A stretch of 64,000 nt of DNA from Candidatus Micrarchaeia archaeon. GTDB taxonomy: Archaea; Micrarchaeota; Micrarchaeia; Micrarchaeales; CABMGC01. The notes beneath the pieces were generated by a model. It saw only the letters and a list, made by a program, of their open reading frames with translations, ran no database searches and was not told the origin of the DNA. Positions 11,123-64,000 of the stretch are shown in pieces (the stretch's first letter is position 1; every line of letters begins with the position of its first letter). The DNA lies in contig JBMFUT010000002.1 of NCBI GenBank assembly GCA_049966395.1, positions 1 to 64,000 of the forward strand, in the 5' to 3' direction. The position numbers were made by a program, and so were the translations under genes.

Positions 11123-11174
11123 CTCCCAGTGCGGCATAGCGCAGAAAACCAATTTGATGACAGCAGCACTTGCG

Positions 11175-13673
11175 CTAGCTATTGGCCTTGATGAATCCAA
11201 TATTGGCGTCTATCCTTTCCAGCGTCTGCTTTACGCTTCTTTCTATGTCTGCCCTGCTGTTGCCCTTGGCAGAGAAGAAAGATGCTATATCATTCCTGGT
11301 CTTTGCTTCCGAGACAGTGCTGAGGTTGTCAACAAACCTCTGGAGCATGTGGGCGCCTTCGCTGTATTTCTTCATGAAAGATTCCCAGTTGCGCTTGGTC
11401 CATCCCCACAGTATCGACTTGCCCACAGGGTTAGAAGCCACGACAGACGGGATTGTCATCGAGTCCTGCAATTTGACGAATCTGGATTTTGAGAACGCAA
11501 GCGCCTCACTAACGAGCTCCTCGCTGCCGAAGTATCCAAGCGCCCCGAGCAGCCTCACTTTCTCGTCGGGCCTTTCTTCGTTGTTGTATAATTTGACTAT
11601 TTTGTCGAATGTTTTTTTGTCGCCATTGCGCGCAACTACTGCGTAAACCGCGCCCTTCAGGTCGGCGTCTATGCTTCCTATTCCGCTGCTAAACATCTTT
11701 TTTGCCGAATCAACGGCCTTCCTATCTCCAGAAATTCCGGCGGCAAGCAAAGCGGCTCCTCTTAGCTTGGAATCTGTTGTGCTTTCCCCCTTCCTCTTAG
11801 ACAGGCCGAGCCTGCCAAGTATTGCGTTTGCAAAATTCCTCCTCAGCTCATTGACATCTTTGTAATATCTTTGGTTGTAGGAAAGCAGCGAAAGGAAGTT
11901 CAGTTCAGAGAGCAGCTCCGCGTTTGCTGGATAGCCTATGCCCATGCAGTACTCTGACACGAAGGTCATGTAATTGCTGAGCTTCATCCTGCCAGATCTT
12001 GTAGCAGCAAAGAGATCGCTCACGAGACTCCATGCGTCAAGCCCGTCTATCATGCCCTTCTTGACTAGCTCTCCTAGCTTTCCAACCGTCTTTTCGTCGT
12101 AGTCGCTCCTGTGGAAAGAAGACAGGCCGTAGTTGAGTTTTATCCATTCTGCGCCTGCCACTTTGGCCGACTTGCCTTTCATGAGCATGCTCCCTTTTCC
12201 ATTGTCCGTAATGTATGTTATTGGTATGGGCCATGGCTTGTCTTCTGCATAGCCTCCTATGAGGAACCTCTTTTGGTAAAGGCCTATGCTTTTGCCTGAC
12301 TTCCTTTCTATTACTACAGGATATCCTTTCCTCTCTATCCATTCCTTCATGAGCCTAGAGACTCCCTTGACTGACCCGCGTGCCCTTGAAGCCTGGTCTA
12401 TTGCAAGCCAAAGGTCCTGTTTCTCGGCGTTGCCGAAACTGTGTTTAGTCAAATACCTGTGCAACCCCTCCCTGAAGGCGTCCTTGCCTACGTAAGATTC
12501 GAGCATGTGAAGAATGCTGCCTCCCTTCTCGTAGCTTATATTGTCGAAGATGCTGTTTATTTCTGCAGGGGTCTTGACCTTGACATTTATGGGATGCGTG
12601 TTCTTAAGTGCGTCTGCAGAAAGCGCAGTGCCGAAAACAGCCATGGCGTATTCAAGGCCTATGCGCCATTCCGGATAAAGCTCGTCCATCGCCTTGTAAC
12701 TCATGAACGTGGCAAAACTCTCGTTGAGCCAAAGGTCGTCCCACCATTTCATTGTGACAAGATCCCCGAACCACTGGTGCGCAAGCTCGTGCATGACAAC
12801 TTCGGCTACTCTCTGCTTGTTGGCAATTGGTGAGTCATCGGCAGCGAGCAGCGCAACCTCCCTGAAAGTTATGGCTCCCCAATTCTCCATTGCGCCAGCT
12901 GCGAAGTCAGGTATTGCGATCAGGTCCACTTTGGGCAGCGGGTAGTTTATGCCGAAGTATTTCTGATAGTATGATATGGCCCTCTTTGCAAAATCAAGAG
13001 CGATGCCTCCAAGTGCCTTCTTTCCCGCAGTCGTAACTACTCTTATTGGCATGCCGCCAAGCTTGCCTTCAAGATATTCGAATTTGCCGACGCCCATGTA
13101 GAGCAGGTAAGTCGACATGCGAGGCGTCTCCTCGAAGCGCACGGCCTTCTTGCTTCCTAATATTTCTACATTCTTTACGGGCATGTTGGATATTGCTTCA
13201 AGCTCCTTGTCGACAACGAGGGTGAGATCAAAGATTGCTTTTGCCGAGGGTTCGTCTATGCATGGAAACGCTGCCCTTGCGTCTGCTGGCTCGAACTGCG
13301 TCGTGAGGAGGTAATTCTTCACGCCTTTGCAAGTGTAGCTGCTCCTGTAGAAGCCGTACATGCCGTCGTTGTTCTTGCCCTTGAAAGATATCATCACCTT
13401 GATCTTTCCCTCGACGGCTCTCGGAAGCGCCAGCTTCACAGTCTCCTTCTTCGCGTCATAGGATACTTTTGCATCAAAAGTCTTGCCATTTGATTCTGCG
13501 AATGCCTTTTTGATTTCGAGCTCCTTCGCATGCAGCAATAAAAAGGTGCTCTTCTTGACTCTCATCTCTATTGTCTCTTCGCCATCAAATGTGAATGCGC
13601 GCATGTCTGGCTCTATCCTCAAATCATAGCGCTCCGGTATTTCAAATCCGTATATAACTTCGGTCTTTTCCAT
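11175..13673 (-). CDS. M1 family zinc aminopeptidase (tricorn-interacting factor F2/F3-like)
   Basis: GAMENWG, HELAHQWFG...LNESFA (HEXXH-18-E), ERAP1-like C-terminal domain. Confidence 0.96.
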   Translation of the reverse strand: MEKTEVIYGFEIPERYDLRIEPDMRAFTFDGEETIEMRVKKSTFLLLHAKELEIKKAFAESNGKTFDAKVSYDAKKETVKLALPRAVEGKIKVMISFKGKNNDGMYGFYRSSYTCKGVKNYLLTTQFEPADARAAFPCIDEPSAKAIFDLTLVVDKELEAISNMPVKNVEILGSKKAVRFEETPRMSTYLLYMGVGKFEYLEGKLGGMPIRVVTTAGKKALGGIALDFAKRAISYYQKYFGINYPLPKVDLIAIPDFAAGAMENWGAITFREVALLAADDSPIANKQRVAEVVMHELAHQWFGDLVTMKWWDDLWLNESFATFMSYKAMDELYPEWRIGLEYAMAVFGTALSADALKNTHPINVKVKTPAEINSIFDNISYEKGGSILHMLESYVGKDAFREGLHRYLTKHSFGNAEKQDLWLAIDQASRARGSVKGVSRLMKEWIERKGYPVVIERKSGKSIGLYQKRFLIGGYAEDKPWPIPITYITDNGKGSMLMKGKSAKVAGAEWIKLNYGLSSFHRSDYDEKTVGKLGELVKKGMIDGLDAWSLVSDLFAATRSGRMKLSNYMTFVSEYCMGIGYPANAELLSELNFLSLLSYNQRYYKDVNELRRNFANAILGRLGLSKRKGESTTDSKLRGAALLAAGISGDRKAVDSAKKMFSSGIGSIDADLKGAVYAVVARNGDKKTFDKIVKLYNNEERPDEKVRLLGALGYFGSEELVSEALAFSKSRFVKLQDSMTIPSVVASNPVGKSILWGWTKRNWESFMKKYSEGAHMLQRFVDNLSTVSEAKTRNDIASFFSAKGNSRADIERSVKQTLERIDANIGFIKANS

Positions 13674-13766
13674 TCGCTCGCCATTTTCATTTCACTATTC
13701 ATCACAAAAATGATAAATAGCAAACTGAATGCCTTGTGTAGGCAGATAAAAAAGCGCATTGAGTAG

Positions 13767-14451
13767 TCAGCGCATTGCCCCTTCGGCAAGCTCCTTGTTG
13801 GCTTCCTCCATGTCCTTGAGCGAGTCTATCGACCTCCAGTAAGAATCCGCGAATTCTGTAGCGTTTATCATCCCTTTAGGTGCGAGCTTCTCGAAAACAT
13901 CCTTCTCGAGGCTCCCGTTCCTAGGCGCGAATTCGAACACCTTCCTGTCCATGAGGTATATTCCTGCATTTATCATGTGCTGCCTGAGCAGCGGCTTTTC
14001 CTCGAAGCCGAGAACCTTGCCCTGCTTTGCGACTACTATACCAAAAGGGCTCCTAAGTGGAACGAGGGCAATTGCAGCGATGGCACCATCTACAGAAAGC
14101 CTGCCTATGTCTATGTTTGTGAGGATGTCGCCATTTAGAGCATAGAATTTGCTGCCCTTCACAAGCCTTTCAGTGTTCTTCAGCGCGCCCCCAGTGCCAA
14201 GAGGCTCGCTTTCCTCCGCATATTTGAAATCAATACCAAAATCCTTAACCTTTCTTTTCAATATATTCAATAATCTGCTCCTTTTTGTAGCCCACTGTTA
14301 TTACTGCCGTATCTACTCCTGCCCTAGCAAGCCATTCGCATTGCCATCCAATTATCGGCTTGCCCGCAATAGGTATCATGGGCTTTGGCATCTCTTCAGT
14401 TATAGGTCTAAGCCTTTTTCCGAAGCCGCCAGCAAGTATAACCGCTTCCAT
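13767..14451 (-). pseudogene. Sugar-1-phosphate nucleotidyltransferase split by a 1-nt frameshift (pseudogene or sequencing error)
   Basis: [14 protein letters not shown] in ORF 14245-14454 continues as EPLGTGGAL..NGD..INAGIY in ORF 13767-14270; removing one T from GGTTAAG restores ...KKGKDFGIDF. Confidence 0.85.
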
Positions 14452-14510
14452 CAAAGCACCGTATAATATTCCAAAGTTATCTTTATAATGTTTGCATATT
14501 CAGCGCATGC

Positions 14511-15611
14511 CTATCTCAGGCTTTCGCAAAGCGTCTTAAATTTCTCCCTTATCCTTTTTTCAGAGAATTCCCTCAGTATGGAAGGTATGTTCTTCTGCAG
14601 CCTTGCAACAAGCTCAGGATTTTCGTCAAGCTCCCTTATGCGCTTTGCATATTTAGTTGGATCATCCTCTATTATAGCGTTGAAACCATTCCTGGCAGCG
14701 AAGCCCTGGAAGGCCACGCTGGTTCCAATCACTGGCTTGCCAGCGATAAGATAGTCAAGCACCTTTGACTTGAAGCCTGTTCCATGCATAAGCGGGGCAA
14801 TGCAGAGGTCGGCTTCGCCAAGCCTCTTTTGCAGCTCTTCGTCAGTTATTTCGCCAAGGCATGAGAAGTTTCCGTGAGACCTTGCTGTGCATCCCCTTCC
14901 TACAACGTAGAATGTTTTGTTCGGCACCGCAGGTGCTATCTCTTCCTCTATTATGCGCGCCGCCTCAGCATTGGGCGGGTAGTCGCACGCGCCAACGAAA
15001 AGTATTTTCCTTATCCTTCTTATGGTCCTTGGCTTTCTCATTTTGCCCACCGGCAGCAGCTGCATGACGTAGCTCTTTTCCTTTGCCGAAGGTATTTCCT
15101 CAACGAGGCGCTTTCTGTCTTCTTCTGTAGGCAGTATGATGTGCGTTGAAACGCCTATCATTTTTTTGTAGATGTGCATCTGTCGCCACAGGTAAATTTT
15201 CTTCAGTATTGCCTTAACTGGCGCAGGCGCCCCGACACTGTCGACGCGAAGCGCGAAATTGTATATGACGTCAGGTGAATCCGTCAACACAACAATGCTG
15301 CATTTGTCTCCGTGCAGCCTGTTATACGCAGCTGCGACAGCGGCAAGCTCTCTGTCGAAAACTATGACAACCTTCGGATCGAATTCGGCCAGTTCTTCAA
15401 GCATTCTCCTTCTTCCAGCAATGCCTGAAGATCCGAGCACGTGCTCCGTCATTCCTTGGACTCTTCTTGTGCTAAAACCCCTGCCAAGCGAAAATATCTC
15501 TTCTTTCGCGCTGCATATTTCGGCAAACAGTCGGGCAAGCCTCATAAGTGCCTTGTCATGCCCCGCAAGCGTCCCTAATGGCGCTTTTCTTATCAGGGCT
15601 ACGCGCATCAT
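14511..15611 (-). CDS. Glycosyltransferase family 4 (GT-B)
   Basis: FVGACDYPPN and ADLCIAPL..GTGFKSKVLDYLIAGKPVIGT C-terminal GT4 motifs. Confidence 0.85.
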   Translation of the reverse strand: MMRVALIRKAPLGTLAGHDKALMRLARLFAEICSAKEEIFSLGRGFSTRRVQGMTEHVLGSSGIAGRRRMLEELAEFDPKVVIVFDRELAAVAAAYNRLHGDKCSIVVLTDSPDVIYNFALRVDSVGAPAPVKAILKKIYLWRQMHIYKKMIGVSTHIILPTEEDRKRLVEEIPSAKEKSYVMQLLPVGKMRKPRTIRRIRKILFVGACDYPPNAEAARIIEEEIAPAVPNKTFYVVGRGCTARSHGNFSCLGEITDEELQKRLGEADLCIAPLMHGTGFKSKVLDYLIAGKPVIGTSVAFQGFAARNGFNAIIEDDPTKYAKRIRELDENPELVARLQKNIPSILREFSEKRIREKFKTLCESLR

Positions 15612-15748
15612 TGAATCGTATTAAGAATCAATTCAAACAATAAAAGCCTTTTGACCATATAGCATATGCAAGCGCAATCAAATGCGTCTCTCAATGCACT
15701 CTGCCAAAAGGTTTTTAAGCATAGCGCAAAAGCGATATAAATAAGAAA

Positions 15749-17068
15749 ATGCTTAAAATTATCATGCGTGAAGCAACAATCTCCTCATCATCAGACGAGG
15801 CGCGGCTTAACAACGATTTCTACTCCAACAACTCTGAGCTATGCTTCAAGACAAGGGCCATGGGCGAGGACTACCAGAAAGCATTCGCAGAATACCTGTA
15901 CAAATACCTAGCCATTTCAGGCATCGAAAAACCGAGAATACTCGAGGTTGGAGCCAACAATATCAGGTTCGAGAGCGGAATCTACAAGAGGATAATGGAA
16001 CTGGATGCGCGCAACCGCACCGATTTCGCGGAAGCAGCAACTTATACCATAATGGACATATCAAAAGCTGCCATAACGGAAGCGAAAGAAAGTCTAACTA
16101 GTACTGAGACCTTCAAGACATTGCTTAGGATAGGCGACGTCACAAAGGGAATATACGGCAATTACGACGTCATAATAGCAAACGAGCTCTTCGACGACCT
16201 CGGCCACGAGGTTGTTGCAAAGATCGGGGGCAAAGCCTATTTTGTAAACTATGCTGTCAGGGTTTCATACACTTCCGATCCGCTTTTTGAGCCACTCTGG
16301 CCGGTTGTAATAGAGGTTTCAGGCCACGGCGAGGTTGACGATGCGACATATGCTAGGTACGGCGACTTGATTGGCATGATGGAAAACGGCAGGGTGTGGT
16401 CTTTCTCAGAAAACGTCGACAGGGCAATATCAAACATGGCGGAAGCGCTGAACAGCGGAGGCATGCTATGGATGCACGACTACGGTTTGCTTTACCCTGC
16501 GCCAAAGGCTTATTCAAACGGCATAAGGCGCCTCTTCGCTCCAAGCGTAGAATCGGCTATGCTGAGCATAGAGAACGGCGACCACCTTGGCTACCAGGTA
16601 ACTACAGATGTAAACTTCATGCAAGTGGCAATGAGCGTTTCTGCGTCAGGCATGAGCATAGCAAAGATGGAAGACCACGAGCTTTTCGTCGGAAGGAAGG
16701 ACGGCAGACTAAACATAAGCTCAATAGCCATTGCCGCTGCTCTTGACAATATGCCGGATTGGAAGCTTGAGCTCATAGAGTCGATGCTAGGCATAAGGGA
16801 CATAGGAGGGCCCAGGCTCAGCATCGTTTCATTCCTGAATTCGCGCTTCTCCAACGCGCTCCTGCTTTCCGAAGGGCGTATACTGCCGAGGAGCGAGTCG
16901 ATATTAGATCTGTCAAAGCTCGGCTCCGCCGCAGAAAATCTTTACAATGAGATTAGTGCATCATTCTATTCAAAAGGAATAAAGAGAACTGTCAACGCAT
17001 CGCCACTGGTAGATATAGCGGCGATAAAGGAGGGCAATGCCGATCTCACTGAATTGCTGAGGGCGTAG
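15749..17068 (+). CDS. SAM-dependent methyltransferase, MidA/NDUFAF7-like
   Basis: ILEVGA, IIANELFDDL, HDYG and TTDVNF resemble MidA-family motifs. Confidence 0.65.
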   Translation: MLKIIMREATISSSSDEARLNNDFYSNNSELCFKTRAMGEDYQKAFAEYLYKYLAISGIEKPRILEVGANNIRFESGIYKRIMELDARNRTDFAEAATYTIMDISKAAITEAKESLTSTETFKTLLRIGDVTKGIYGNYDVIIANELFDDLGHEVVAKIGGKAYFVNYAVRVSYTSDPLFEPLWPVVIEVSGHGEVDDATYARYGDLIGMMENGRVWSFSENVDRAISNMAEALNSGGMLWMHDYGLLYPAPKAYSNGIRRLFAPSVESAMLSIENGDHLGYQVTTDVNFMQVAMSVSASGMSIAKMEDHELFVGRKDGRLNISSIAIAAALDNMPDWKLELIESMLGIRDIGGPRLSIVSFLNSRFSNALLLSEGRILPRSESILDLSKLGSAAENLYNEISASFYSKGIKRTVNASPLVDIAAIKEGNADLTELLRA

Positions 17069-17410
17069 CATGTGTGCAGGCAATTATACTGCCAAGCCGA
17101 TATTATAATAGTATTATAATAATGCCGGAGCGGCAAAGGAAGCGAACAAATATAAGCTTTGCATGCGAAGTATTACCTGCAAGGCAACAGATGGAATGCA
17201 CGCAACGCCAAATAATCAACGGCATTGCCGTTTTGGCCATGCAAAATTGAAAAATAGCATTTCGTCGAAGGCATTCGTCTATAGCAGAAGTATGGTATAA
17301 CAATCGTCGATTATCGGCGAATGTCATATAAAAAAAATGTTAAACATATGAGCAGTATTTAAATACTTTGCTTTTGAATAACATCTCAACAAAAATGTTT
17401 AAGTGATAGC

Positions 17411-20400
17411 ATGAAAAGTATAAACGCGAAGAGAATAGCCGCTATCGCGGCAAGCTTGATAGTAGGTCTTGCATTCGCAGGACCAGTCTCTTTCCAGAAC
17501 GTGCCCATAATAAACAACGCAGGCCAGCCAGTAGTGCAGATAGTCGTAGGTTCAACAGCAATGCCTAGCGACGGCGTAGTGGCTGCAAACATAGCTGCGG
17601 TAATAGGCAATCTGGCGTACACATCCACACCAATAACAGCGACAGTGAATGGCAAGGGCGCAGTGAGCTGCGCAGTAACAACGCCAACATGCACGCTGAG
17701 CAACCAGCAAGTCTGGCTTGGCGAAAAAGGAGTGGTAGTGCCTACAGGCAGCTATAAGATAAGTACATTAATAGGATCAATAATGAACAGCGGAGTGCTG
17801 AACTACAACACGCTCTCAAGCACAAAGACATTGGACACCTCAGGCACATACTCATATCCAGAAGGATCTTCAGCGCCATATGCAATATCTACTTCACCAA
17901 CCCAGAGCGTCTTCACGGGCATAACATCATACAACCCAATACCAGTAAACCAGAGCGCATTGGCAGGAACTAACGGCGGAGGCATGAGCTTCTCGCAGTT
18001 CTCTTCATACTTTAACGGAAACTACTCCGACAACATAGTGCAGCTGACAAACGCGCAGGTTCCAGGTCTGATGTCAAGCAGCGGACCAAACTCTGAGTCA
18101 GAATACCTATGGCTCATGGGCTTCCCTGTATACGACCAGGCGCTGAACAACTTCGCTTTGCTTGACGCAAACGGAGCTTATCAAGTGACATTCGGCACAC
18201 CAGTGCCACTCTACTCTGGCACTACAAGCGCGTACAAGTCAATAACATTCCTAGGAGAAAACTGGACAATATATGGCGGAACTCCGCCATCAGTATCCAC
18301 ACTTCCATCATCAAGCGAGTACGTAGTCGGAGGAAAGCTTGAACTTGCACAGTCAATAACTCCAGTGCAGACAGTCTACGTCGGCCACAACATAACATCA
18401 GGACCAATAGAAGTGGTACTGCAAGACTTGTCATACCCTAACAGCTCAGGAGGCAGCAAGGCAGCAATCGCGGTATACAACCACGGCGTGCTGACAAACG
18501 AGACGGCAATACCTCCATACACAGTCTATCCTGTAAACAGCAGCGGCACAACGCTATACATAGGCGTAGGGCAGACATTCCCAGGCCTTTATGCATACCA
18601 GAAGTGGGCAAAGATACAGCTCTTCAGCAACGTCTTCAACATAACATCAGGAAAGAACTTCAACTCTAACAACAACGACTGGCTTGCAGCGATAAGGTGG
18701 ACAACGAACCAGTCAACAGCACCAAGCGCATGGGGCAACTACGCCGAGCTTCAGGGCATAATACTCTACAGCAACTCTTCTAAATCACAGACAATGGTGC
18801 CAGGATCGTCATTCACATTCATACAAAACCCAGCAGTATGGAAGTTCAACTTCCTGGGCGACTCTTTGGGTGCGCCTGGAAGCGGCAACTCAAACTACGA
18901 CCCTCTGACATTCTCAACAGCAACAAGCACAGCAGGCACGACATACCAGAACCCAAGTGGTCAATCTGGTCAAGCGCCGCAAGCAAATACATATAAATGG
19001 ACCAATGCTGGCAGCTTTACAGCAGTAACTGGTAGTTCAATAATAATGGCATACGGCAACACAACAGCAATAACAGAGCCAACAAGCCAGTTCACAGTGT
19101 CAAGCTCTGTGCCTACAGCATTCACAATAAAGCCTCCGGCAGGAACGCCAGCACCATCTTCAAGCCTTGGCAGCGTTACATACAACCTTGACACATACGA
19201 ACTAACGCAGTCCAATGTAGTCGAATCGAACTCGCTCACTGCAGCAAATGGAGCCGCAAACCCGGGATTGATAGTAGTTCTAAGTCTAAACTCAGGACTT
19301 GATCCCAACTACATAACAAGCTCCAATCCACTAACAGTCAAGATATCAGGCTACAAGGGAGGAACACCGACATCTGGAGGAACAGTGCAGTTCACCTCAG
19401 GCACCTCAGGCTTGACACAAACAACATCACAGGTACTAGACAACATAACAAACATACAACTCAGCTATCCACTTCCAGCACCAGGCGTAAGTATATCTGT
19501 ATACGAAACCGCCAACACACTAAATCCGGCTTCTGCCAATGTGCCCTTGGCAACACTATCATACTATGGCCCGACAGTAATGTACTCAGTGCCTAACTAC
19601 AACTACGAAATCTCTGCACCAGCAAGCACAACAACGGTAGACTACGGCGAGGAGAGCGGTGCGCAAGTGCCTTTCACACTGACTGCAAATGTGCCAACCA
19701 CCACACAAACAGCGCCATACCAATACTTCACATACAACATGCCTGAAATAACACTGCCTTCAACAACAACGCCAAACGCATATGTCTATCTCGGCTTGAT
19801 GAACCAGTCAAGCGTGGCAGATCCAACACCACTCTACTGGCTCAACCAGACAAACAGCGACAACAACGCAATGACCTACACAAGCTCGCAGGGCCACACA
19901 GTAAAGGCCGTGCAGGGCTTCAGGACAGAGCGCGGCAGCGAAGTGGCTGCAATATCGCCAACATCAGTGACATACGACATGGCGAAGGCGGTAGACGCAC
20001 TGGAATTTGTGGTAGGGCCATACTCTTCGGCAGTCAGCTCAACAACAAAGACATACGGGCCATACGGAGTAGGGCAGGCAACTAACATACCAAACGTAAC
20101 AATAGCGCAGGTGAACGCCTCATGCAGCTTCTCTTCAACAAGCTGCAGCGTAACAGGGCTGAGCAACCTGACAGCAACGCCTTCAGTGACAAGCGCCACA
20201 ACGCCTGTAACACTGAACACAGCAACAACGCCACTCGCAGTGCTCGACAGCAACGCAAACCAGGCTGCAACATTGATAGTCGTGGGCAGCAAGTACGTGA
20301 ACAGCGTAGCATCGCAGATATTCGCGCAGAACCCAAGCCTCGACAGCAGCTTCGGCCCAGGATCAGTGATAGTGCAGGCATTCGGCACAAACCGCATACT

Positions 20401-56260: not shown

Positions 56261-56857
56261 ATGATACCAAATATAGACGAAATAACCAAGGAGCTCTCTG
56301 CGCTTCAGAAGAGGCAGGACAGGGTGATGGATCTTTCAAGATCCATAATAAGACTGACAGGCTATGCGATAACAGCAATACACAACCGGGACTTCAAGTC
56401 CTCTTCGGCTTCTATGAAGGAACTGCAAGCGCTCATGAAGGAGCTCTCAGTCGCAGAAAAAGGCTTCGAATACTACTCCCAGCAAGCTCATCAGGAGTTC
56501 ACAGAGCTCATGGTATTCATGTCTGTAATCAAGGATGGTAAAATACCATCAATGAAAGAAATAGGCGAGACGGCAGTGCCCTATCTGCTTGGCATCATGG
56601 ACGTCGTCGGCGAGCTTAAAAGGGAGGCCTACGAGGCGCTCAGGAAGGGCGATGCCGCTGAAGCAGAGTCATACTACGAGAAGATGCAGGGAATATACGA
56701 TGCAACGAGGCACATAAGGTTTGCGGAGTCTCTCATGCCGGGCTTCAGGAAGAAGCAGGATGTTGCCAGGATACTGATAGAAGGCACAGGCAGCGATCTT
56801 CTTGGAGTGGCGCAAAGTAAGCACAGACACTCTTCACCAGGAAAACGCAACAAATAA
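56261..56857 (+). CDS. Translin/TRAX family protein (archaeal C3PO-like)
   Basis: SR.IIR....AI.AIH, QEFTE, YLLGIMDVVGELKR, RKKQDVAR. Confidence 0.85.
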   Translation: MIPNIDEITKELSALQKRQDRVMDLSRSIIRLTGYAITAIHNRDFKSSSASMKELQALMKELSVAEKGFEYYSQQAHQEFTELMVFMSVIKDGKIPSMKEIGETAVPYLLGIMDVVGELKREAYEALRKGDAAEAESYYEKMQGIYDATRHIRFAESLMPGFRKKQDVARILIEGTGSDLLGVAQSKHRHSSPGKRNK

Positions 56858-56903
56858 AAGGTTTAGACAGCTAATTTGCGGTATTACAAATAAAGTGGTT
56901 AGT

Positions 56904-57482
56904 ATGAGAACCTTAAAAGCGCAAAGCGCAATGGAATACCTAATGACATACGGTTGGGCTATACTTATAATAGCCGTAGTGCTAGGGGCATTGTTCTCTT
57001 TGGGGGTGTTCAGCACCGCCTCTTTAGTTGGCACAACTTGCGTTGCAAGCTCTGGATACCTTTGCAGCAATCCCATATTGCACGGTGGCTATTTCAACGT
57101 TACCATAGGCCAGGCTACCGGCACAGGCTGGTATAGTGCAATTGTATGCTTTGCGCCAGCCAACAGCACTGCCTCATTCTCATCGATGTCGGCGCCAAGT
57201 GGCAATACTATTTCATTTTCTTCGATTCAGCTTTCTACTACTACAACTACCACTACCATCCCGCCACAGTTAAGTACGGTGAGCTGCCCGAGCGGTACGA
57301 TAGCAGGCTTTGCAGCCCCACAGGCAATTGCGAGCGGGCAGCAGGTAAGCGCGTCTTTCAACGGCCTGCCAAGCACCGTAGGGGCAACAACATCAGGGGC
57401 GATATGGGCGGTATACCAAACTACAAGCTCAAGCCCTGTGTATGCAACTCAGATAGCAGTAGTTACACTCAAGGCGGTGTAA
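56904..57482 (+). CDS. Type IV pilin-like protein, copy 1
   Basis: Class III signal peptide MRTLKA|QSAMEY (Q+1, E+5) plus a hydrophobic helix. Confidence 0.9.
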   Translation: MRTLKAQSAMEYLMTYGWAILIIAVVLGALFSLGVFSTASLVGTTCVASSGYLCSNPILHGGYFNVTIGQATGTGWYSAIVCFAPANSTASFSSMSAPSGNTISFSSIQLSTTTTTTTIPPQLSTVSCPSGTIAGFAAPQAIASGQQVSASFNGLPSTVGATTSGAIWAVYQTTSSSPVYATQIAVVTLKAV

Positions 57483-57540
57483 ATTCTTTTTCGTTTTTTG
57501 ATCATTACTTATGTACATTCTGCCCACAAAGTGCAATGGC

Positions 57541-58395
57541 AAGGTTTAAATAGGTTTTATTTGCAGTATTACCAGGAAAGTGGTTAGTATGAGAACCTTA
57601 AAAGCGCAAAGCGCAATGGAATACCTAATGACATACGGTTGGGCTATACTTATAATAGCCGTAGTGCTAGGGGCATTGTTCAGCCTCGGCGTCTTCAGCG
57701 GTGCTTCACTGTTGGGAACAACATGCATCGCTAGCAGCGGATACCTGTGCAGCGGGCTTATATGGTCGCACACAAATGGATTGCAGTTCACATTCGGCCA
57801 GAGCACTGGCGTGAACTGGGCAGGAGCCAATATTTTCTATGTACCTTCGGGCACCGCCGCGCCAAGTTCAGTACCAAGCACTTGCGTTCAGTCACTTGGA
57901 AGCTTTAACAGTGGTCAGTCAACTCCAGTAACTCTAACAGGCAGTTGCTATGGCACTACTGTATCTGGATTATCTTCAGTAGGTGCAACAACGGCAGGTG
58001 CATTGTGGGCAGAGTACCAGACAGCGGCCGGCGGAACACAATACTTTACCCAAGTCGCAACCCTAACTGCAAAAGCAAGCTAATCTGCTGAATTTCTTTT
58101 ATTTTTTCTTTCTATTTTTCTGTTTTTTTGGTGTTTAGCATCAACTTTATTACTGTATATTTGCTTTGCAAAGTGCAATAGTAAGGTTTAAATAGGTTTT
58201 ATTTGCAGTATTACCAGGAAAGTGGTTAGTATGAGAACCTTAAAAGCGCAAAGCGCAATGGAATACCTAATGACATACGGTTGGGCTATACTTATAATAG
58301 CCGTAGTGCTAGGGGCATTGTTCAGCCTCGGCGTCTTCAGCGGTGCTTCACTGTTGGGAACAACATGCATCGCTAGCAGCGGATACCTGTGCAGC
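57541..58395 (+). repeat. 213-bp perfect direct repeat (57541-57753 and 58183-58395); a 105-bp core is also at 56892-56996
   Basis: Base-by-base comparison covering the promoter region, start codon and N-terminal pilin codons. Confidence 0.95.
57589..58083 (+). CDS. Type IV pilin-like protein, copy 2
   Basis: Same class III signal peptide; divergent globular part. Confidence 0.9.
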   Translation: MRTLKAQSAMEYLMTYGWAILIIAVVLGALFSLGVFSGASLLGTTCIASSGYLCSGLIWSHTNGLQFTFGQSTGVNWAGANIFYVPSGTAAPSSVPSTCVQSLGSFNSGQSTPVTLTGSCYGTTVSGLSSVGATTAGALWAEYQTAAGGTQYFTQVATLTAKAS

Positions 58396-58757
58396 AGCCC
58401 TATATTACACGGTGGTACTCTAACTGCAACAGTAGGTCAAGCAACTGGAGCCACATGGAGTGCAGCTACTCTCTGCTTGGTAGGCAGTGGTGTGGTACCG
58501 ACAACATCATGCACAAATGTTCCTGGCGCAAATGTCATAGTTAGCGGAGGACTAGTGTCAGGGCAGACAGCAACACCTCAATTTACTGCATATGTAAATT
58601 CTGCTGGTGGAGCAACTTCTCTGCCTAGCTCTGTAGGCTCCACATTCTCAGGCTACATATACGCAGTCTACACAGTCGGTAGTCAAAGCGGCCTTATGAC
58701 ACAGATAGCAACTATCACTGCAAAAGCAAGCTAATCTGCTGAATTTCTTTTATTTTT
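58066..58757 (+). repeat. 41-bp perfect direct repeat over the pilin 2 and 3 stop codons and T-rich terminators (58066-58106, 58717-58757)
   Basis: ACTGCAAAAGCAAGCTAATCTGCTGAATTTCTTTTATTTTT at both sites. Confidence 0.93.
58231..58734 (+). CDS. Type IV pilin-like protein, copy 3
   Basis: Same class III signal peptide; divergent globular part. Confidence 0.9.
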   Translation: MRTLKAQSAMEYLMTYGWAILIIAVVLGALFSLGVFSGASLLGTTCIASSGYLCSSPILHGGTLTATVGQATGATWSAATLCLVGSGVVPTTSCTNVPGANVIVSGGLVSGQTATPQFTAYVNSAGGATSLPSSVGSTFSGYIYAVYTVGSQSGLMTQIATITAKAS

Positions 58758-58783: not shown

Positions 58784-59713
58784 TTAGCCTTCGCTCTTCT
58801 TTGCCTCTTCAATCATCTCCAGCGCTTCAATAAGCTCGTTGGCGCTTAGAAGCGGTTTCCTGAGCCTTTCATCGTCATCAGTGACCAGCCTGGGACAAGC
58901 AGTGTTGACGAAGGCATCGATTTCCATCATGTTGTTCAAGGAGTCGAAGTCGAAAGTGTTCGAAACCAGCAAGGCCGCCCGGAGCCCAGCCTTTTCTATC
59001 CTTTCCTTTATGATCTTGGCAAGCGCCATGTTGTACTGGCCGTTCTTCGTGCTAACCAATATTCCGAAACTCTTTGCATACATCGCGCTCAATATTCTGC
59101 CTTTTGACCTCTTTTTGTAGGCCTCTCTATAGCTATCTATAAACTCTACCTTTTTCGCAAATGGCTCTACGACAAGGAAAGGCTTGGTGGTTGCGAGAAG
59201 CGCGCCCATTGGATGGAAGAGCCCTCCGCCAAAGTAGACGAAAGCGTCAACATCTCCATCTATTCTAGCCGCGCTGCCTACGTCGCATCCGAGTATCTGG
59301 CCTTCGTGCCTCGCGAAGCCATAAGGCTTCCCTATTAAAACCTTCTTTCCGTGCTCCTCGTAGAAGCGCTTTATTTCCGGAAGCTGCTGTACATGTTGGA
59401 CAGTCGTCACTACTCCTATGGTATCGTGGCCCTCGAGCATTTTCAGCGATTCGGGAAGCAGCTCGAGGCTTGCGTCTATCCTGTATTCAACATATTCTAC
59501 GTTGAAATCGACGCGCATGAATTCAGCATGGCCGAAATGCACTAGCTTGTCCGCGCCTATGCGCCTTGCCTCGTCCAATGCCAGGTCGCACGCTCCGAAA
59601 GTCGGCGATGCCGATATCGCAACCTCGTTGCCCTCTGCTTCGAGTTTTCTTGCGTACTCAAGAGCGTGCTGCTTTAGCCCTTCAGGAAACTGCAAAAGTA
59701 TCTTCATTGCCAT
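58784..59713 (-). CDS. dph2: Diphthamide biosynthesis enzyme Dph2
   Basis: LQFPEGLK, FGACD, HFGH, GQILGC, TACPR (three Fe-S Cys). Confidence 0.95.
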   Translation of the reverse strand: MAMKILLQFPEGLKQHALEYARKLEAEGNEVAISASPTFGACDLALDEARRIGADKLVHFGHAEFMRVDFNVEYVEYRIDASLELLPESLKMLEGHDTIGVVTTVQHVQQLPEIKRFYEEHGKKVLIGKPYGFARHEGQILGCDVGSAARIDGDVDAFVYFGGGLFHPMGALLATTKPFLVVEPFAKKVEFIDSYREAYKKRSKGRILSAMYAKSFGILVSTKNGQYNMALAKIIKERIEKAGLRAALLVSNTFDFDSLNNMMEIDAFVNTACPRLVTDDDERLRKPLLSANELIEALEMIEEAKKSEG

Positions 59714-60666
59714 CACTTGAGATTCTCGTATTTAGTTGCCCTGTTCCACAGCTCGTTGAACCTTCTCTCAGCCTCGGTGTGGTTTATCCCTACAATATGC
59801 TCACTCTTTCTGTTTATTATGTTGAGCGGCGGTATCTTGTAGGCTATTGCCGAATCCATTATCATCCTCTCGTGCTGCCCCACGGCATCGGCATCATCCA
59901 TGATCCGCAATTCGAAGGCAGTGCCGCTGTTTTCGAGCTCCTTCTTGAAATCGTAATAGGCTTCAGAGAGCTCCTTGTTAAGCCTATCTCTTTTTGTAAG
60001 CACAGAAATGCTGCTGTAGTTGTTTGCATGGCCCCTCGAGATCCTGGAAAGATTTTTGAGCCCAGTGGCATCGAAGTGCGTGTCCAGTATCTTTATATCG
60101 CCATTGAGCTTTGACATGATCCTGTTTGAAAGCACTTCTATATTTGTGTAAGGTGTCTCGGGATTGACTTCAAAGTCCTTTGCAACCTTCTTTGGAGCTT
60201 TCCTCTCAGAAGTGGCAATGACGTAAATGCCCGCGACCACGCCTATGGCCGCGCCTACATAAGAGGATTCGAATATGTTTGCGGGCTCACTGAAGCTCAG
60301 GCTGAATTCAAGTATTGCCACAAGCACAGCTGCGACTATTGCAGAGAGCATAACTACTGCGGCTACAGCCCTTATATATGTGCGCGCAAATAGCCAGAGC
60401 GCGCCTGCAGCGAGGATTATTACAGCAAATGGAATTATGGCATAAGCGACATACATGGCTATGCTGAGCGATTGCATGCCTGCTATCGCAGCTATAGTGG
60501 AATTTGAAGCCTTTATACCGTATGCACTTATCGCACCGCTCAGCCCTCCGGCAAAGCCGATGGAGTATGATATCCTGGTTATGAGAAAGAGCGCCCTGAA
60601 GGACAGCATCACACCGGATATCAGTGCAAGTATAGCACCTATGTACAGGCTCCTTTGCGTTGGCAT
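59713..60666 (-). CDS. Four-TM membrane protein with a C-terminal PLD-like (HxR-x4-D) domain
   Basis: Four hydrophobic helices, then IKILDTHF...HERMIMD...FNELW. Confidence 0.55.
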   Translation of the reverse strand: MPTQRSLYIGAILALISGVMLSFRALFLITRISYSIGFAGGLSGAISAYGIKASNSTIAAIAGMQSLSIAMYVAYAIIPFAVIILAAGALWLFARTYIRAVAAVVMLSAIVAAVLVAILEFSLSFSEPANIFESSYVGAAIGVVAGIYVIATSERKAPKKVAKDFEVNPETPYTNIEVLSNRIMSKLNGDIKILDTHFDATGLKNLSRISRGHANNYSSISVLTKRDRLNKELSEAYYDFKKELENSGTAFELRIMDDADAVGQHERMIMDSAIAYKIPPLNIINRKSEHIVGINHTEAERRFNELWNRATKYENLK

Positions 60667-60701
60667 CAAATCCTAAATAATAATGCAAGAAAAAGTATAA
60701 A

Positions 60702-61271
60702 TTAGGCGGCTTCGACAGCAGCAGCGCCCTGAGCTTTGGCGCTTGCATTGCCAAGATCCTGCCTAATTATCTTGTATAATCCTGAAAGCTTTGATTTTGA
60801 CCTCCTCAGCGCTTCGTAGCCTATTTCTTTCTTTTCTGAAGGTATCTTCACTTCAAACAGCGCCTGGCCCCTGCTGACTCTTGCCGCTACAGCCGTAGGC
60901 TTTCCGAATGCGAGGGTCATTCCCTGCGAAATTCTGTCTGCACCGGCCCCGGTAGCCATTCTCTTTTCCCTAAGCACGTTGTGAGGATATGTGAGCACTC
61001 TGAAGAAGTAATTGCCAGGAATCTCCCTTTCCAAATACTTGTTGGCTGCCTGTCTTGCGGCTTCTATAGCATTGCTCCTGAGCTGCACGTCGTTTTCAGC
61101 CTCAAGTATAAGCTTCATGCCGTAATCTGGCTTGTCAACACCCATCTTGAATATAAGCAGGCTAGTGTGTGGCAGCGCTTTTATGTAGTTCTTCCTGGGC
61201 TTCCTAAGCGAGTACCTCGCCCATGCCTGGCTGTTTATCTTTCTAGTAGCTCTTGCAGGTCTAAGTCTCAT
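60702..61271 (-). CDS. rpl10e: Ribosomal protein uL16 (L10e)
   Basis: RPAR, AIEAAR..ANKYL, YPH.VLRE...GAGADRISQGM..AFGKP. Confidence 0.97.
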   Translation of the reverse strand: MRLRPARATRKINSQAWARYSLRKPRKNYIKALPHTSLLIFKMGVDKPDYGMKLILEAENDVQLRSNAIEAARQAANKYLEREIPGNYFFRVLTYPHNVLREKRMATGAGADRISQGMTLAFGKPTAVAARVSRGQALFEVKIPSEKKEIGYEALRRSKSKLSGLYKIIRQDLGNASAKAQGAAAVEAA

Positions 61272-61472
61272 TTAAACACCGTAAGATGCAAGCACAGCTG
61301 ACCTGTGCAAGCACTCTATTATTGGGTGCAAAAGCTATATAATGATTTCTATTAAGCGCGCATTTTTCTTCTCTCTTCAGTCGCAGGGCTCGCCGTCATT
61401 GTCAATCCGTTTGCGAAAGCTTTAAATATTTATTATAGTAAATATAATTTAGCAAAGTAAAAAGATGAGTAT

Positions 61473-61853
61473 ATGAATATACAAAAAGGCAAGGTATTTC
61501 TGGGTTTCGCGAGGAGCATATACCCAAAGCTCATAATACTGGTGCTCTTTGTGCTTGGCGGCGAGTACAAGGCGTCTGTGTTCTCCCTTGACATAATAGG
61601 CACGCTCAACTACGTTCAGGCGCTGCTCATGCACATAGGTCCTATGCTGAGCGCAGTGCTTTTCATAGTGGCAGGCATATTCTACGCGCTTGGCCAGATG
61701 CTGCCTCCGGACAAGAAGGCAAACTTCCACACCGCTTCCATAAACATAATAATAGGCGCAGTTATAGTCGCTGTACTCTCTGTAGCTTCAAATGGGCTTG
61801 CAATAGCCTCAACGCACCTGCTTTCGAATCTCACCATAAACATGACAAAGTGA
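61473..61853 (+). CDS. VirB2/TrbC/CedA1-like conjugative-type pilin candidate
   Basis: Leader plus two hydrophobic helices separated by a short basic loop (IVAGIFYALG..PPDKKA..IIIGAVIVAV). Confidence 0.6.
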   Translation: MNIQKGKVFLGFARSIYPKLIILVLFVLGGEYKASVFSLDIIGTLNYVQALLMHIGPMLSAVLFIVAGIFYALGQMLPPDKKANFHTASINIIIGAVIVAVLSVASNGLAIASTHLLSNLTINMTK

Positions 61854-61857
61854 ATAG

Positions 61858-62922
61858 ATGGATTACCAGCAGTTGCCCTTTGGCATTTACGGCTTCGGCA
61901 TGGCAACTCTAATTATAGCCATAATGCTTTCAATAAGCGGGATAGTACTAGGTATAGGCTACGCCTTAGATGACAAGCGGCTCAAGGAATTTGGGAGAAG
62001 CGAGATATACCAGTCGATAATAAACGCCGCAATGGTAGGCGGTCTCTTGGCGCTTTTCGCCAGCAACGGTATAATTACATCATTTATGAACAACATAACA
62101 TACTCATCAAGCAGCAGCTTCTCATGCCCCGAGTTCATGTCGAACAACGCTGCGCTGTGTTTTGCGTATAATTACCTTGCTGGAAGCTCCCCTTACACTT
62201 TCATGGGATCGCAGCACTCGTCGCTTCTTTCTACTATCTCGGGCATGCTTTTCGCGCTGATAGGCCTTGCAATAGTGCTTGGCATAATAGCAGGCATAAG
62301 AATAGACCTTCTTGTGGCTTCATTTTCGTTCAGCAATGTGCTGAACCCTTTCCTTTCCGAACTGCAGCACATAATAACAATCACTGCCGCAGCGTTTGTC
62401 GGAATATCAGTCCAAGCATCTGTGCTCTCGTTCGTGGCGCTTACTGCGACGACCGTTATACTTCCTACTGGGCTAATATTGAGAAGCTTTTATCTCACTA
62501 GGCGAGTAGGAGGCTTCTTCATATCTTTGGCAATAGGGCTTTACGTGGTATTGCCTTTGTCATATTTACTCAATGCCTTTCTTATGAACAGCTATTCCAC
62601 AAGTATCAACCAGACAAGCATAGAAAGCGTAACCAGCACAGCAAGTTCATTCAGCGGAAGCCTAGACGGCATATCTAGCTACAACTCTACCAACGAAACT
62701 TCAAATGGCGGTATTGTTGGCATGATAACTGGGGGAATAAGCTCTGTAGCAAACTCTGTCAGCGGCATTTTCAGTTCGCTGCTTGCCTTTGTCTCTGGCT
62801 TGGTAATGCAGGTTTTCATACTGCCTGCATTTAGCCTGGCAATAACATACATATCCATAAGGGAGCTTGCCAGAGCGTTAGGCTCAGAGGCGGCGTTTGG
62901 CGGTCTTATAAAGATGGTATGA
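61858..62922 (+). CDS. Polytopic membrane protein, CedA/VirB6-like
   Basis: 6-7 TM helices; LKEFGRSEIYQSIINA and GLILRSF..TRRVGGFFISLAIGLYVVLP resemble CedA segments. Confidence 0.55.
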   Translation: MDYQQLPFGIYGFGMATLIIAIMLSISGIVLGIGYALDDKRLKEFGRSEIYQSIINAAMVGGLLALFASNGIITSFMNNITYSSSSSFSCPEFMSNNAALCFAYNYLAGSSPYTFMGSQHSSLLSTISGMLFALIGLAIVLGIIAGIRIDLLVASFSFSNVLNPFLSELQHIITITAAAFVGISVQASVLSFVALTATTVILPTGLILRSFYLTRRVGGFFISLAIGLYVVLPLSYLLNAFLMNSYSTSINQTSIESVTSTASSFSGSLDGISSYNSTNETSNGGIVGMITGGISSVANSVSGIFSSLLAFVSGLVMQVFILPAFSLAITYISIRELARALGSEAAFGGLIKMV

Positions 62923-63638
62923 TGGAATTGAACGACACAAACATTTACGCGTACGCCATATACGCTTTTGCAGTGCTTTCGCTAATTTCCGCAGCGCTTT
63001 TCGGCAGCGCAACCCTGCTCCTACTGGCGCTTGTCCTTTCAGCGGCATCAGTTATTTACATGCATTCGGGCAGAATAATAAATGGCTTAATACTCAGTAG
63101 GTCCAGAGTAATAGAACTTTCAGGCGGCTATTCCTTGGATGGCAGCATGACCTCGGCAGTCAAAAGGGAAGGCGGTTCATACAAAAGCGTTTCTATAGCC
63201 GAACTTAAAATGGACAAACCCCTGCAATACAAAAGCGAGCAGTTTGCCGAAATAATAGAGAAGGCAGGAGTGCCTTTCGAATTTACCATAGGAATAAGAA
63301 AAATAAATACAAAGGCATTTACCGAGGCCCTGGAAACAAGGCGGAGGATGAAGGAAATAGCCATTTCTAACACTCCTTCTTCATCATACGAAAGGATCAG
63401 CAGGCTCAAAAGAGAGCTGTCAATGATAGAAAACGAGATAAAAAGCGTGGAAGATGGAAGCAAGCCTGTAGAAGCCTTTGCTTACTTGCGCTCCTTCGCA
63501 ACAGGCAGTGCCGCTGGCATAGCGGCGAGGGAATCCCAAGAGCAGCTTGCGCAAGTGGCCGAAATATTCAGGGCGGCGCTCGGAATAGGCTACAGCGTGT
63601 GCAAAGGCGAGGACCTTTTGCGAATAGTGGGGGATTGA
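62919..63638 (+). CDS. Membrane-anchored protein resembling the N-terminal part of a CedB/VirB4-type ATPase
   Basis: Two N-terminal TM helices and an alpha/beta domain with coiled-coil hairpin; in frame with the downstream ATPase. Confidence 0.5.
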   Translation: MMELNDTNIYAYAIYAFAVLSLISAALFGSATLLLLALVLSAASVIYMHSGRIINGLILSRSRVIELSGGYSLDGSMTSAVKREGGSYKSVSIAELKMDKPLQYKSEQFAEIIEKAGVPFEFTIGIRKINTKAFTEALETRRRMKEIAISNTPSSSYERISRLKRELSMIENEIKSVEDGSKPVEAFAYLRSFATGSAAGIAARESQEQLAQVAEIFRAALGIGYSVCKGEDLLRIVGD

Positions 63639-64000
63639 GTGCGCACATTCAGGCAGAGCTCGCGGTCTGTAAGTAATCTTTTTTTCCTTATCGGAAGCAC
63701 CGAGCCATCCAAGGCAGAAGCCGCAAAAGCATCTGACAGTTGCATATATCTTGGCAGAAGCTACATTCGTAGCATGCCGTCCTTCCTAGATCTAAGCGCG
63801 TCAATGAACCCTCACATATTCATATTTGGAATGACTGGCAGCGGGAAAAGCTACCTTATGAAGAGCCTGATAATGATGCTCTCTGTGGTTTCAGATGCGC
63901 TTGTCCTGGTAATAGATATAACTGGGGAGTACGCCGAATTTGGGGATTTTGCCGTGAATGTGGAATCTACAGCGCAGCTGCCTGAAGCGCTTCGCGGATG
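63639..64000 (+). CDS. HerA/VirB4/CedB-like P-loop ATPase, runs off the window edge; not in ORF track
   Basis: Manual translation from GTG 63639: IYLGRS...FLDL...MNPHIFIFGMTGSGKS...LVIDITGEY. Confidence 0.88.
   Translation, partial: MRTFRQSSRSVSNLFFLIGSTEPSKAEAAKASDSCIYLGRSYIRSMPSFLDLSASMNPHIFIFGMTGSGKSYLMKSLIMMLSVVSDALVLVIDITGEYAEFGDFAVNVESTAQLPEALRG

Follow-up and report, generated by a model that had tools for sequence, protein, structure and literature searches.

The DNA analysed here, called the window, comprises the first 64,000 nucleotides (nt; 64 kb) of C2, a contig which is 76,310 bp long and belongs to a Candidatus Micrarchaeia archaeon, whose genome assembly consists of 34 contigs (693,655 bp, 89% complete). 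At the end of the window, four open reading frames (ORFs) of the + strand form the beginning of the operon that is the subject of this report. Gene 1 (61473..61853, 126 amino acids (aa)) encodes a putative VirB2/TrbC-type pilin precursor, gene 2 (61858..62922, 354 aa) a VirB6/CedA-like polytopic membrane protein with six hydrophobic helices, and gene 3 (62919..63638, 239 aa) a coiled-coil membrane anchor, read here as the detached N-terminal part of an ATPase. Gene 4, designated 'ATPase 1' (C2:63639-64724, +, 361 aa), encodes a predicted motor of the HerA/VirB4 superfamily, and its first 120 codons lie inside the window. The successive genes are separated by a gap of 4 nt, an overlap of 4 nt and 0 nt. 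A first-pass annotation of the window had described four tightly coupled + strand genes, encoding a small two-helix pilin-like protein, a protein with 6 to 7 transmembrane helices, a membrane-anchored coiled-coil protein and an ATPase, and had read them as a domesticated conjugation-like machine; the ORF list agrees with it on strand and spacing. When the contig was read past the end of the window, five more genes were found, including a second ATPase, and the operon amounts to nine genes, ending at 68510, that is, 4.5 kb beyond the window.

The gene 1 product has the architecture of VirB2-type pilins: a leader, two hydrophobic helices, and a short charged loop. In the alignment, the leader extends to about residue 35, ends with an A-x-A/S-like sequence and looks cleavable; over the family it is variable, basic and hydrophobic, with small residues at its end. 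The mature part is a two-helix hairpin with the loop LPPDKKANFH (Kyte-Doolittle hydropathy and alignment), and the pilin core is nearly invariant among relatives (GP-LSAVLFI-AGIFYA-GQ-LPPDK-ANFHT-INIIIGA-VAVLSVAS). In an AlphaFold2 (AF2) model of predicted local distance difference test (pLDDT) 80.9, the hairpin helices (34-76 and 79-125) have a pLDDT above 85, and the leader helix is of low confidence. Gene 1 has 404 homologues at E <= 0.001, and Pfam families T4SS_pilin (PF18895) or TrbC/VirB2 (PF04956) were precomputed for 14 of the 120 homologues listed. When aligned relatives were scanned singly at E <= 0.01, 27 of 53 matched T4SS_pilin and 22 of 53 matched TrbC/VirB2, with a best E of 8.6e-7; gene 1 itself matches TrbC/VirB2 at E = 0.041. 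A search of PDB sequences with the pilin profile gave nothing relevant. According to the parts consulted of the published work, a limit that holds for all papers cited here, TedC and bacterial VirB2 are both processed, and gene 1 resembles these more closely than it does CedA1 (PMC9905601). The internal homology of CedA1/CedA type that is reported for Ced was not reproduced (hhalign probability of 0.2% between the pilin family and the channel N-terminus), and the pilin family showed no significant relation to a 47-aa two-helix protein encoded further downstream (15%). An invariant Asn was also observed in a C-terminal N-x-T/S motif of the pilin family; judging from the motif, it may possibly be an N-glycosylation site on the surface of the pilus.

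The gene 2 product contains six hydrophobic stretches in the Kyte-Doolittle profile. It has no match in Pfam or NCBIfam, and all of its 109 homologues are named 'hypothetical'. A profile built from 45 of them retrieved 2,006 cluster representatives at E <= 0.001, of which 709 at 1e-10; no relevant Pfam domain was found in 34 distant relatives, and nothing relevant was found among PDB sequences with HMMER. HHpred, which is more sensitive than HMMER, is the method by which TedA was tied to CedA and VirB6 (PMC9905601). The AF2 model (pLDDT 78.9, predicted template modelling score 0.69) shows six long membrane helices together with a small beta element on the outer side. With this model, Foldseek gave no hit at E <= 0.001, the TrwI/VirB6 chains appearing at ranks 3, 6, 19 and 22 (E 0.2-0.6). 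In a structure comparison over 48,161 solved chains, TrwI/VirB6 ranked first, at a modest score, and was the sole top match to span the whole protein. The comparison of folds that had been suggested for the membrane proteins thus does not speak against a VirB6-like channel and may point to one. Cys90 and Cys101, in an outer loop, are invariant in the channel family, and a C90-C101 disulfide is possible.

Gene 3 encodes one long N-terminal hydrophobic stretch (9-51), and the description of its product as membrane-anchored therefore stands; its status as a component apart does not, the more fitting reading being that of an N-terminal part of the ATPase which has become detached. When the genome was searched with the CedB model (NF041017), a single match was obtained (CedB 116-315, 56.5 bits), which begins in the C-terminal half of gene 3 and continues unbroken across the stop codon into gene 4. 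Taken by itself, gene 3 matches CedB 113-174 at E = 0.015. A membrane anchor plus putative VirB4-type N-domain would thus be encoded by a separate gene, not joined to the ATPase, and genes 3 and 4 are read, from sequence, as a split CedB/VirB4-like ATPase made of a membrane anchor and a motor. The VirB4 N-domain (PF03135) itself was not matched by any operon protein, and the anchor profile retrieved nothing relevant from PDB sequences. At window positions 63636-63641, the TGA of the anchor is in frame with, and directly precedes, the GTG start of ATPase 1, and the read-through frame would be 629 aa long. Recoding, or a broken gene, was considered for this in-frame TGA and ruled out, because in 66 of 73 public loci anchor and ATPase 1 do not share a frame, mostly with a 4-nt overlap, so that the common frame seen here is a coincidence peculiar to this genome. 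For the same reason, we take the split between anchor and ATPase to be old and real.

ATPase 1 contains the two motifs reported in the first-pass annotation, NPHIFIFGMTGSGKS and IDITGEY, as well as Walker A (GMTGSGKS) and Walker B (DEAW). Among 33 orthologues, G64, G67, G69, K70, D93, E97 and Y98 are invariant or nearly so. Its Pfam matches are DUF87 (2.6e-13), AAA_10 (3.9e-13), TrwB_AAD_bind and P-loop_TraG, and in NCBIfam CedB scores best (1.3e-15), ahead of defence HerA, TraC, VirB4 and CedD. CedB matches all 33 orthologues, at best with 6e-26 and never near the cut-off; the CD1110 VirB4-like family and TraC each match 32 of them and CedD 31, with HerA families close behind. Because its CedB score is 57.1 bits, against a cut-off of 700, ATPase 1 is classed by sequence as CedB-like and not as a CedB orthologue. 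The VirB4 model TIGR00929 is matched in its C-terminal ATPase part only (46 bits, cut-off 643).

'ATPase 2', the last gene of the operon (C2:66372-68510, +), encodes about 712 aa, and the longest ORF, from 66222, would give 762 aa. It is predicted to be a soluble, divergent HerA/FtsK-type ATPase, CedD-like in that CedD (NF053655) is its best NCBIfam match; this match is distant (E = 6.5e-7, 28.4 bits compared to a cut-off of 600). Its profile retrieved HerA (8wiv, 1.9e-7) and VirB4 (4ag5, 0.12) from the PDB, and Pfam found nothing in its C-terminal part. The CedB and CedD proteins of Sulfolobales are paralogues; jointly, their N-domains resemble the VirB4 N-domain, and the pair stands in for VirB4 (PMC11868833). 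By analogy, the two-ATPase layout of the operon would parallel the Sulfolobales CedB/CedD pair.

The organization of the operon was then compared between genomes. The best 80 of 115 confirmed public loci were used, and a crude ORF caller found the channel gene in 77 of these; it remained uncalled in L053 and L061, which are cut by contig ends, and in L085, where it is unlabelled. All counts refer to loci with enough flank. The pilin gene lies upstream of the channel gene in 73 of 74 testable loci, the anchor lies next to the ATPase in 75 of 77, and ATPase 1 is in place in 74 of 75. Hence gene 2, with its polytopic product, is a neighbour of both the pilin gene and the VirB4-like ATPase gene, as is expected for channels of the VirB6, CedA or TedA kind. 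The 223-aa gene that follows ATPase 1 is present in 64 of 73 testable loci, and ATPase 2 is found no more than 6 kb away from the channel in 42 of 67. Since genes 1 to 4 are kept in nearly all testable loci, and the other genes less often, the former are the conserved core of the operon and the latter are accessory. The order pilin-channel-anchor-ATPase recurs far beyond chance, in almost every related genome. The operon is syntenic in 10 of 10 loci of relatives belonging to two families, with flanks that differ between the families. Among eight loci from more distant families, four have the full four-gene core, three have the pilin-channel pair alone, and one (L115) has the channel alone. The sources of the homologues are nearly all labelled Candidatus Micrarchaeota, Micrarchaeia or Micrarchaeaceae, with a few 'Marsarchaeota', one 'Aquilonibacter' and some 'uncultured archaeon', which bears out the DPANN origin first proposed for the window.

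At the scale of the phylum, the channel profile matches 178 of 201 sampled genomes and the pilin profile 151 of 201. A strong channel match was obtained in 30 of 35 genomes of the family to which the window belongs and in 47 of 56 genomes of the sister family, that is, 77 of 91 together (75 of 89 if two genomes flagged as unpublished, G038 and G210, are left aside). In a tree of ATPase 1 from the fetched loci (15 rows), families fall on separate sides (f1, 98/94; f3, 90/93; f7 with f9, 100/100). The tree therefore follows taxonomy, and this fits vertical descent.

Ced and Ted systems are built from a VirB2-like protein, a VirB6-like membrane protein and a HerA/VirB4-like ATPase (PMC9905601, PMC11868833). 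The Ced system found in Sulfolobales and Desulfurococcales (CedA, CedA1, CedA2, CedB, CedD, CedE), as described in these sources, is like the present one chromosomal and devoid of a relaxase. Both would have a small two-helix VirB2-like protein, a VirB6-like protein of 6 to 7 helices, a membrane-tethered HerA/VirB4-like ATPase and a second, paralogous ATPase (CedD in Ced). They differ in phylum and lifestyle, and the scores of the ATPases lie far from those of Ced proteins (57 compared to 700 bits for CedB, 28 compared to 600 for CedD). Here, moreover, the N-terminal anchor of the ATPase is a separate gene, all parts are in one operon, and the leader of the pilin looks cleavable, while CedA1 is reportedly unprocessed. 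The Ted system of Thermoproteales (TedA, TedB, TedC) is, by its description, also chromosomal, with a leader-bearing VirB2-like pilin (TedC, of signal-peptidase type), a VirB6-like channel and a VirB4-like ATPase (PMC9905601). An additional HerA-like helicase is often present in Ted loci (PMC9905601), and here a 574-aa HerA-like ATPase lies 2 kb downstream. In contrast to the present operon, Ted genes are scattered over their locus and TedB is a full-length VirB4.

Three other groups of systems share some of these traits. In Patescibacteria (candidate phyla radiation, CPR), which are likewise ultra-small and host-dependent cells, systems of type IV secretion (T4SSs) are near-universal, chromosomal and mostly relaxase-less, with VirB2-like pilins (PMC12102498, PMC12857230); VirB4 is found in 2,417 of 3,035 assemblies (PMC12102498). 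These systems are bacterial, with a full-length VirB4 of MPF_FATA class accompanied by VirB3, VirB8 and other parts, whereas the motor of the operon is split and of CedB/HerA type. Archaeal conjugative plasmids (pNOB8 type, pT33-3) have VirB4-like ATPases without a recognisable relaxase (PMC12857230), and in nanohaloarchaea the SPEARE proteins are DPANN proteins with VirB4/TraG-like ATPases proposed to act on hosts (PMC10266531). The plasmids differ in being mobile and in encoding VirD4/TraG, and the SPEARE proteins in being giant fused surface proteins; for neither is a VirB2-like pilin or a VirB6-like partner reported in the sources consulted.

We propose, with a probability of about 0.6, that the operon encodes a chromosomally fixed, vertically inherited derivative of type IV secretion, similar in kind to archaeal Ced and Ted, which moves a substrate, most likely DNA, between cells. 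The parts of this proposal are not equally firm. That the machine is of T4SS type is highly probable. That its substrate is DNA has close to an even chance; what speaks for DNA is that CedB and CedD, to which the two ATPases are closest, are DNA-import proteins. Import as the direction is a more tentative suggestion, slightly preferred since neither a relaxase nor a coupling protein was found. In the mechanism envisaged, the pilin would be inserted into the membrane and its leader removed, and the VirB6-like protein would form a membrane platform and pore. A hexameric VirB4/CedB-like ATPase, docked at this platform by its separately encoded anchor, would pull out pilin subunits into a short VirB2-type pilus and power the passage of the substrate. 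The soluble CedD-like ATPase 2 and the small membrane proteins may assist. The substrate, most likely DNA, would then pass between cells in contact, be they kin or host, import being somewhat more likely than export.

Several results weigh against this proposal. The match of gene 1 with T4SS_pilin (E = 8.8e-5, 22.9 bits) is under the cut-off of 26.6, and the fold search with its model returned generic hairpins only. A CedB match at E <= 0.1 was obtained for only 3 of 33 gene 3 orthologues, with no other family recurring, and no fused anchor-ATPase was found among longer proteins, which is weak evidence. The ATPases match HerA, VirB4, TraC and CedD almost as well as CedB, with scores far under the curated cut-offs. 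NreA, encoded just downstream, is nearby in only 14 of 67 loci, a weak link, and it was rejected as a functional partner on this ground. Finally, 14 of the 91 close-family genomes sampled, the one-contig genome G206 among them, gave weak paralogue matches only, and the system was not detected in them. Most of these 14 genomes also are without the pilin (G188 keeps a weak match), and they include whole genera (g29, 0/3; g39, 0/2). The operon is therefore dispensable for some lineages.

Micrarchaeota are host-dependent, and the genome is small (0.69 Mb). This gives some weight to another use of the same T4SS-derived machine, namely in host interaction, as a pilus for contact or a conduit by which metabolites, lipids or proteins of the host would be taken up, or effector proteins delivered. 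The operon encodes no DNA-processing enzyme, and the outer domain of the protein encoded at C2:65397-65867 is highly variable in length (142-338 aa), as expected for surface recognition. A precedent is offered by the near-universal, relaxase-less T4SS of Patescibacteria with its VirB2-like pilins (PMC12102498), for which such a role is proposed and which is required for epibiotic growth (PMC12857230). This use has to be taken seriously, but we consider it rather unlikely: both ATPases match DNA-import proteins (CedB and CedD) most closely, the operon has no effector-like or toxin-like gene linked to it, and no sign of the system was found in the 14 relatives mentioned above, which presumably are host-dependent too.

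It could also be supposed that the operon is a lineage-specific membrane system, for a pilus or for secretion, built around a HerA-type ATPase and unrelated to T4SSs, its likeness to pilins and VirB6 being convergent, as may arise among small hydrophobic proteins. This is improbable, considering that three independent parts each point to the corresponding T4SS component and are arranged as in T4SS loci. Pfam matches of VirB2 type are given by about half of the pilin family, VirB6 heads the structural matches of the channel and is the only one of full length, and the CedB model spans the boundary between anchor and ATPase.

T4SS-like genes usually belong to mobile elements, and the possibility of an integrated conjugative element, or of its decaying remnant, was therefore considered. 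Mobility was searched for with three families. No tyrosine integrase (PF00589), not even of XerA type, was matched in the 89%-complete genome, while 14 of 14 control genomes were positive; nor was any MobA-type relaxase (PF03432) or VirD4/TraG coupling protein (PF02534), with positive controls. The first-pass annotation had noted that no relaxase or integrase was in sight, and this now extends downstream and to the rest of the genome. We know of no archaeal relaxase. Nothing resembling VirB8, VirB1 or VirD4 was recognised. Viral contigs hold no relative of the channel family, and ATPase 1 has fragmentary matches on plasmids, none covering 80% of the query, the best being a TraC fragment. G+C content is flat across the region, at about 0.47, and all genes are intact. 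Together with the gene tree that tracks taxonomy and the same housekeeping neighbourhood (type IV pilins-Dph2-L10e-operon) in several genera, these results make a mobile element very improbable. As for a HerA repair helicase beside unrelated membrane genes, for which DUF87/HerA as top Pfam domain, the HerA-type top PDB sequence matches and the downstream NreA could be cited, it is close to refuted by the lack of NurA (PF09376; no match in the 89%-complete genome, 7 of 14 control genomes positive), the translational coupling of the ATPase to the membrane anchor in 75 of 77 loci and the rarity of a nearby NreA. We conclude that the system is chromosomally fixed and is neither a mobile element nor a repair HerA, because the tree follows taxonomy, the flanks are housekeeping genes, and no integrase, relaxase, coupling protein or NurA was found. 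None of the findings named in the first-pass annotation as fatal to a domesticated conjugation-like machine has thus emerged: there is no nurA beside the ATPase, whose best and most consistent family is CedB, and that reading is supported.

A second, paralogous system, which is pilin-less, was observed on contig C5 (6297-18360, -). With the channel profile, six tandem VirB6-like paralogues of 351-466 aa were found at 11137-18360 (-). Two anchor paralogues (275 and 279 aa) adjoin a 501-aa ATPase (DUF87 3.5e-18, TraG P-loop 3.6e-10), and the cluster also encodes a 98-aa protein resembling the C-terminal tail of that ATPase and a 240-aa coiled-coil/winged-helix protein. Pairwise comparison of the C5 and C2 proteins gave E values of 2e-8 for the channel, 3e-9 for the anchor and 1e-25 for the ATPase; no pilin of the gene 1 family was found in the C5 cluster. 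ATPases of the 501-aa size are present in 41 of 41 relatives searched. The tandem array recalls the arrays of VirB6 paralogues in Rickettsiales. A run of N at about 12100-12220 of C5, inside the N-terminus of a 361-aa channel paralogue, corresponds to an assembly gap or a masked stretch.

A more far-reaching scenario, which we regard as speculative and on balance improbable, is that the operon is the Micrarchaeota counterpart of the Patescibacteria T4SS. In these nucleotide-poor epibionts it would pull DNA from Thermoplasmatales hosts, or from kin, as a source of genes, repair templates and nucleotides, and would work beside the universal, pilin-less C5 translocon with its six VirB6-like paralogues. 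If this were true, ultra-small host-dependent cells of both prokaryotic domains would have independently domesticated conjugation machines for feeding and exchange.

To our knowledge, Ced and Ted have so far been known only from Thermoproteota (Crenarchaeota). A conserved, compact operon in Micrarchaeota would add a second archaeal lineage, one that lives very differently, to the range of conjugation-derived machines, in parallel with the T4SSs of Patescibacteria. Outside supplements and subscription journals, no T4SS- or Ced-like system was found described for Micrarchaeota, and papers that name Micrarchaeota together with type IV secretion or VirB4 concern, in the parts consulted, other organisms. 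Within DPANN, the nearest precedent in these sources is offered by the SPEARE proteins of nanohaloarchaea, through their VirB4/TraG-like domain (PMC10266531). The operon bears on the question of how DPANN archaea exchange material with hosts and kin, for which concrete candidate genes, the pilin and the ATPase, are now available, as are Micrarchaeota-Thermoplasmatales co-cultures. In addition, a naturally split VirB4/CedB-like motor may help to delimit the portion of the N-domain that serves for docking on the membrane platform.

Four accessory genes, all on the + strand, lie between the two ATPases of the operon. The first (C2:64729-65400) encodes a cytoplasmic coiled-coil protein of 223 aa, which belongs to no family: Pfam gave no match and the ESM Atlas no usable one. 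It is followed by the gene for a single-pass membrane protein of 156 aa (C2:65397-65867), the one with the variable outer domain, whose start overlaps the previous stop (ATGA); the longest ORF, from 65352, has 171 aa. Next come a small two-helix membrane protein, 47 aa long from a TTG start (C2:65906-66049; the frame is open from 65868), and a small membrane protein of 94 aa with about three helices according to the ORF and its hydropathy (C2:66046-66330). Counterparts by position in 25 loci measure 142-338 aa for the single-pass protein, 45-78 aa for the two-helix protein and 69-114 aa for the three-helix protein. At the other end of the operon, a TATA-like AT-rich stretch, TTTAAATATTTATTATAGTAAATATAAT (61421..61448, +), lies 25-50 nt 5' of the pilin start and is a putative operon promoter. 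It was picked up only as a match to a bacterial-type consensus, in a promoter and terminator scan that carries no meaning in an archaeon; from its composition we read it as a putative archaeal TATA box.

As had been pointed out, the operon sits next to rpl10e (60702-61271, -; Ribosomal_L16/L10e, E = 1.4e-24). The upstream flank further contains diphthamide synthase, three type IV pilin-like genes, translin, OGG, two aminoacyl-tRNA synthetases, ThiI and L7Ae. The three type IV pilin-like genes are in tandem (window 56802-58734), 2.7 kb upstream of the operon, and their products have near-identical N-termini (MVSMRTLKAQSAMEYLMTYGWAILIIAV...); the order type IV pilins-Dph2-L10e-operon was seen again in several genera. 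Type IV (Ups) pili are required for Ced-mediated exchange in Sulfolobales (PMC12102498), and the proximity of such pilin genes to the operon may therefore not be accidental.

Downstream of the operon are found a convergent NreA gene (Nre_N 1.3e-87), a 185-aa gene and a third HerA/VirB4-like ATPase (C2:70536-72260, +, 574 aa; CedD 1.5e-16, CedB 3.9e-15), and further on, subunits of pyruvate/2-oxoacid:ferredoxin oxidoreductase, then peroxiredoxin. Besides NreA and the 185-aa gene, the 574-aa ATPase adjoins an 88-aa zinc-ribbon protein with a weak match to the Rad50 zinc hook. Its C-terminal 130 residues or so contain, by eye, a 'PD...E-x-E...K'-like motif, and Pfam finds no nuclease domain there. 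This ATPase is not syntenic with the operon in the 10 loci of relatives. On the upstream side, a 318-aa protein (window 59713-60669, -), for which there is no Pfam family, combines several N-terminal hydrophobic helices with a soluble C-terminal domain, and it is kept in the locus of one relative (E = 7e-41).

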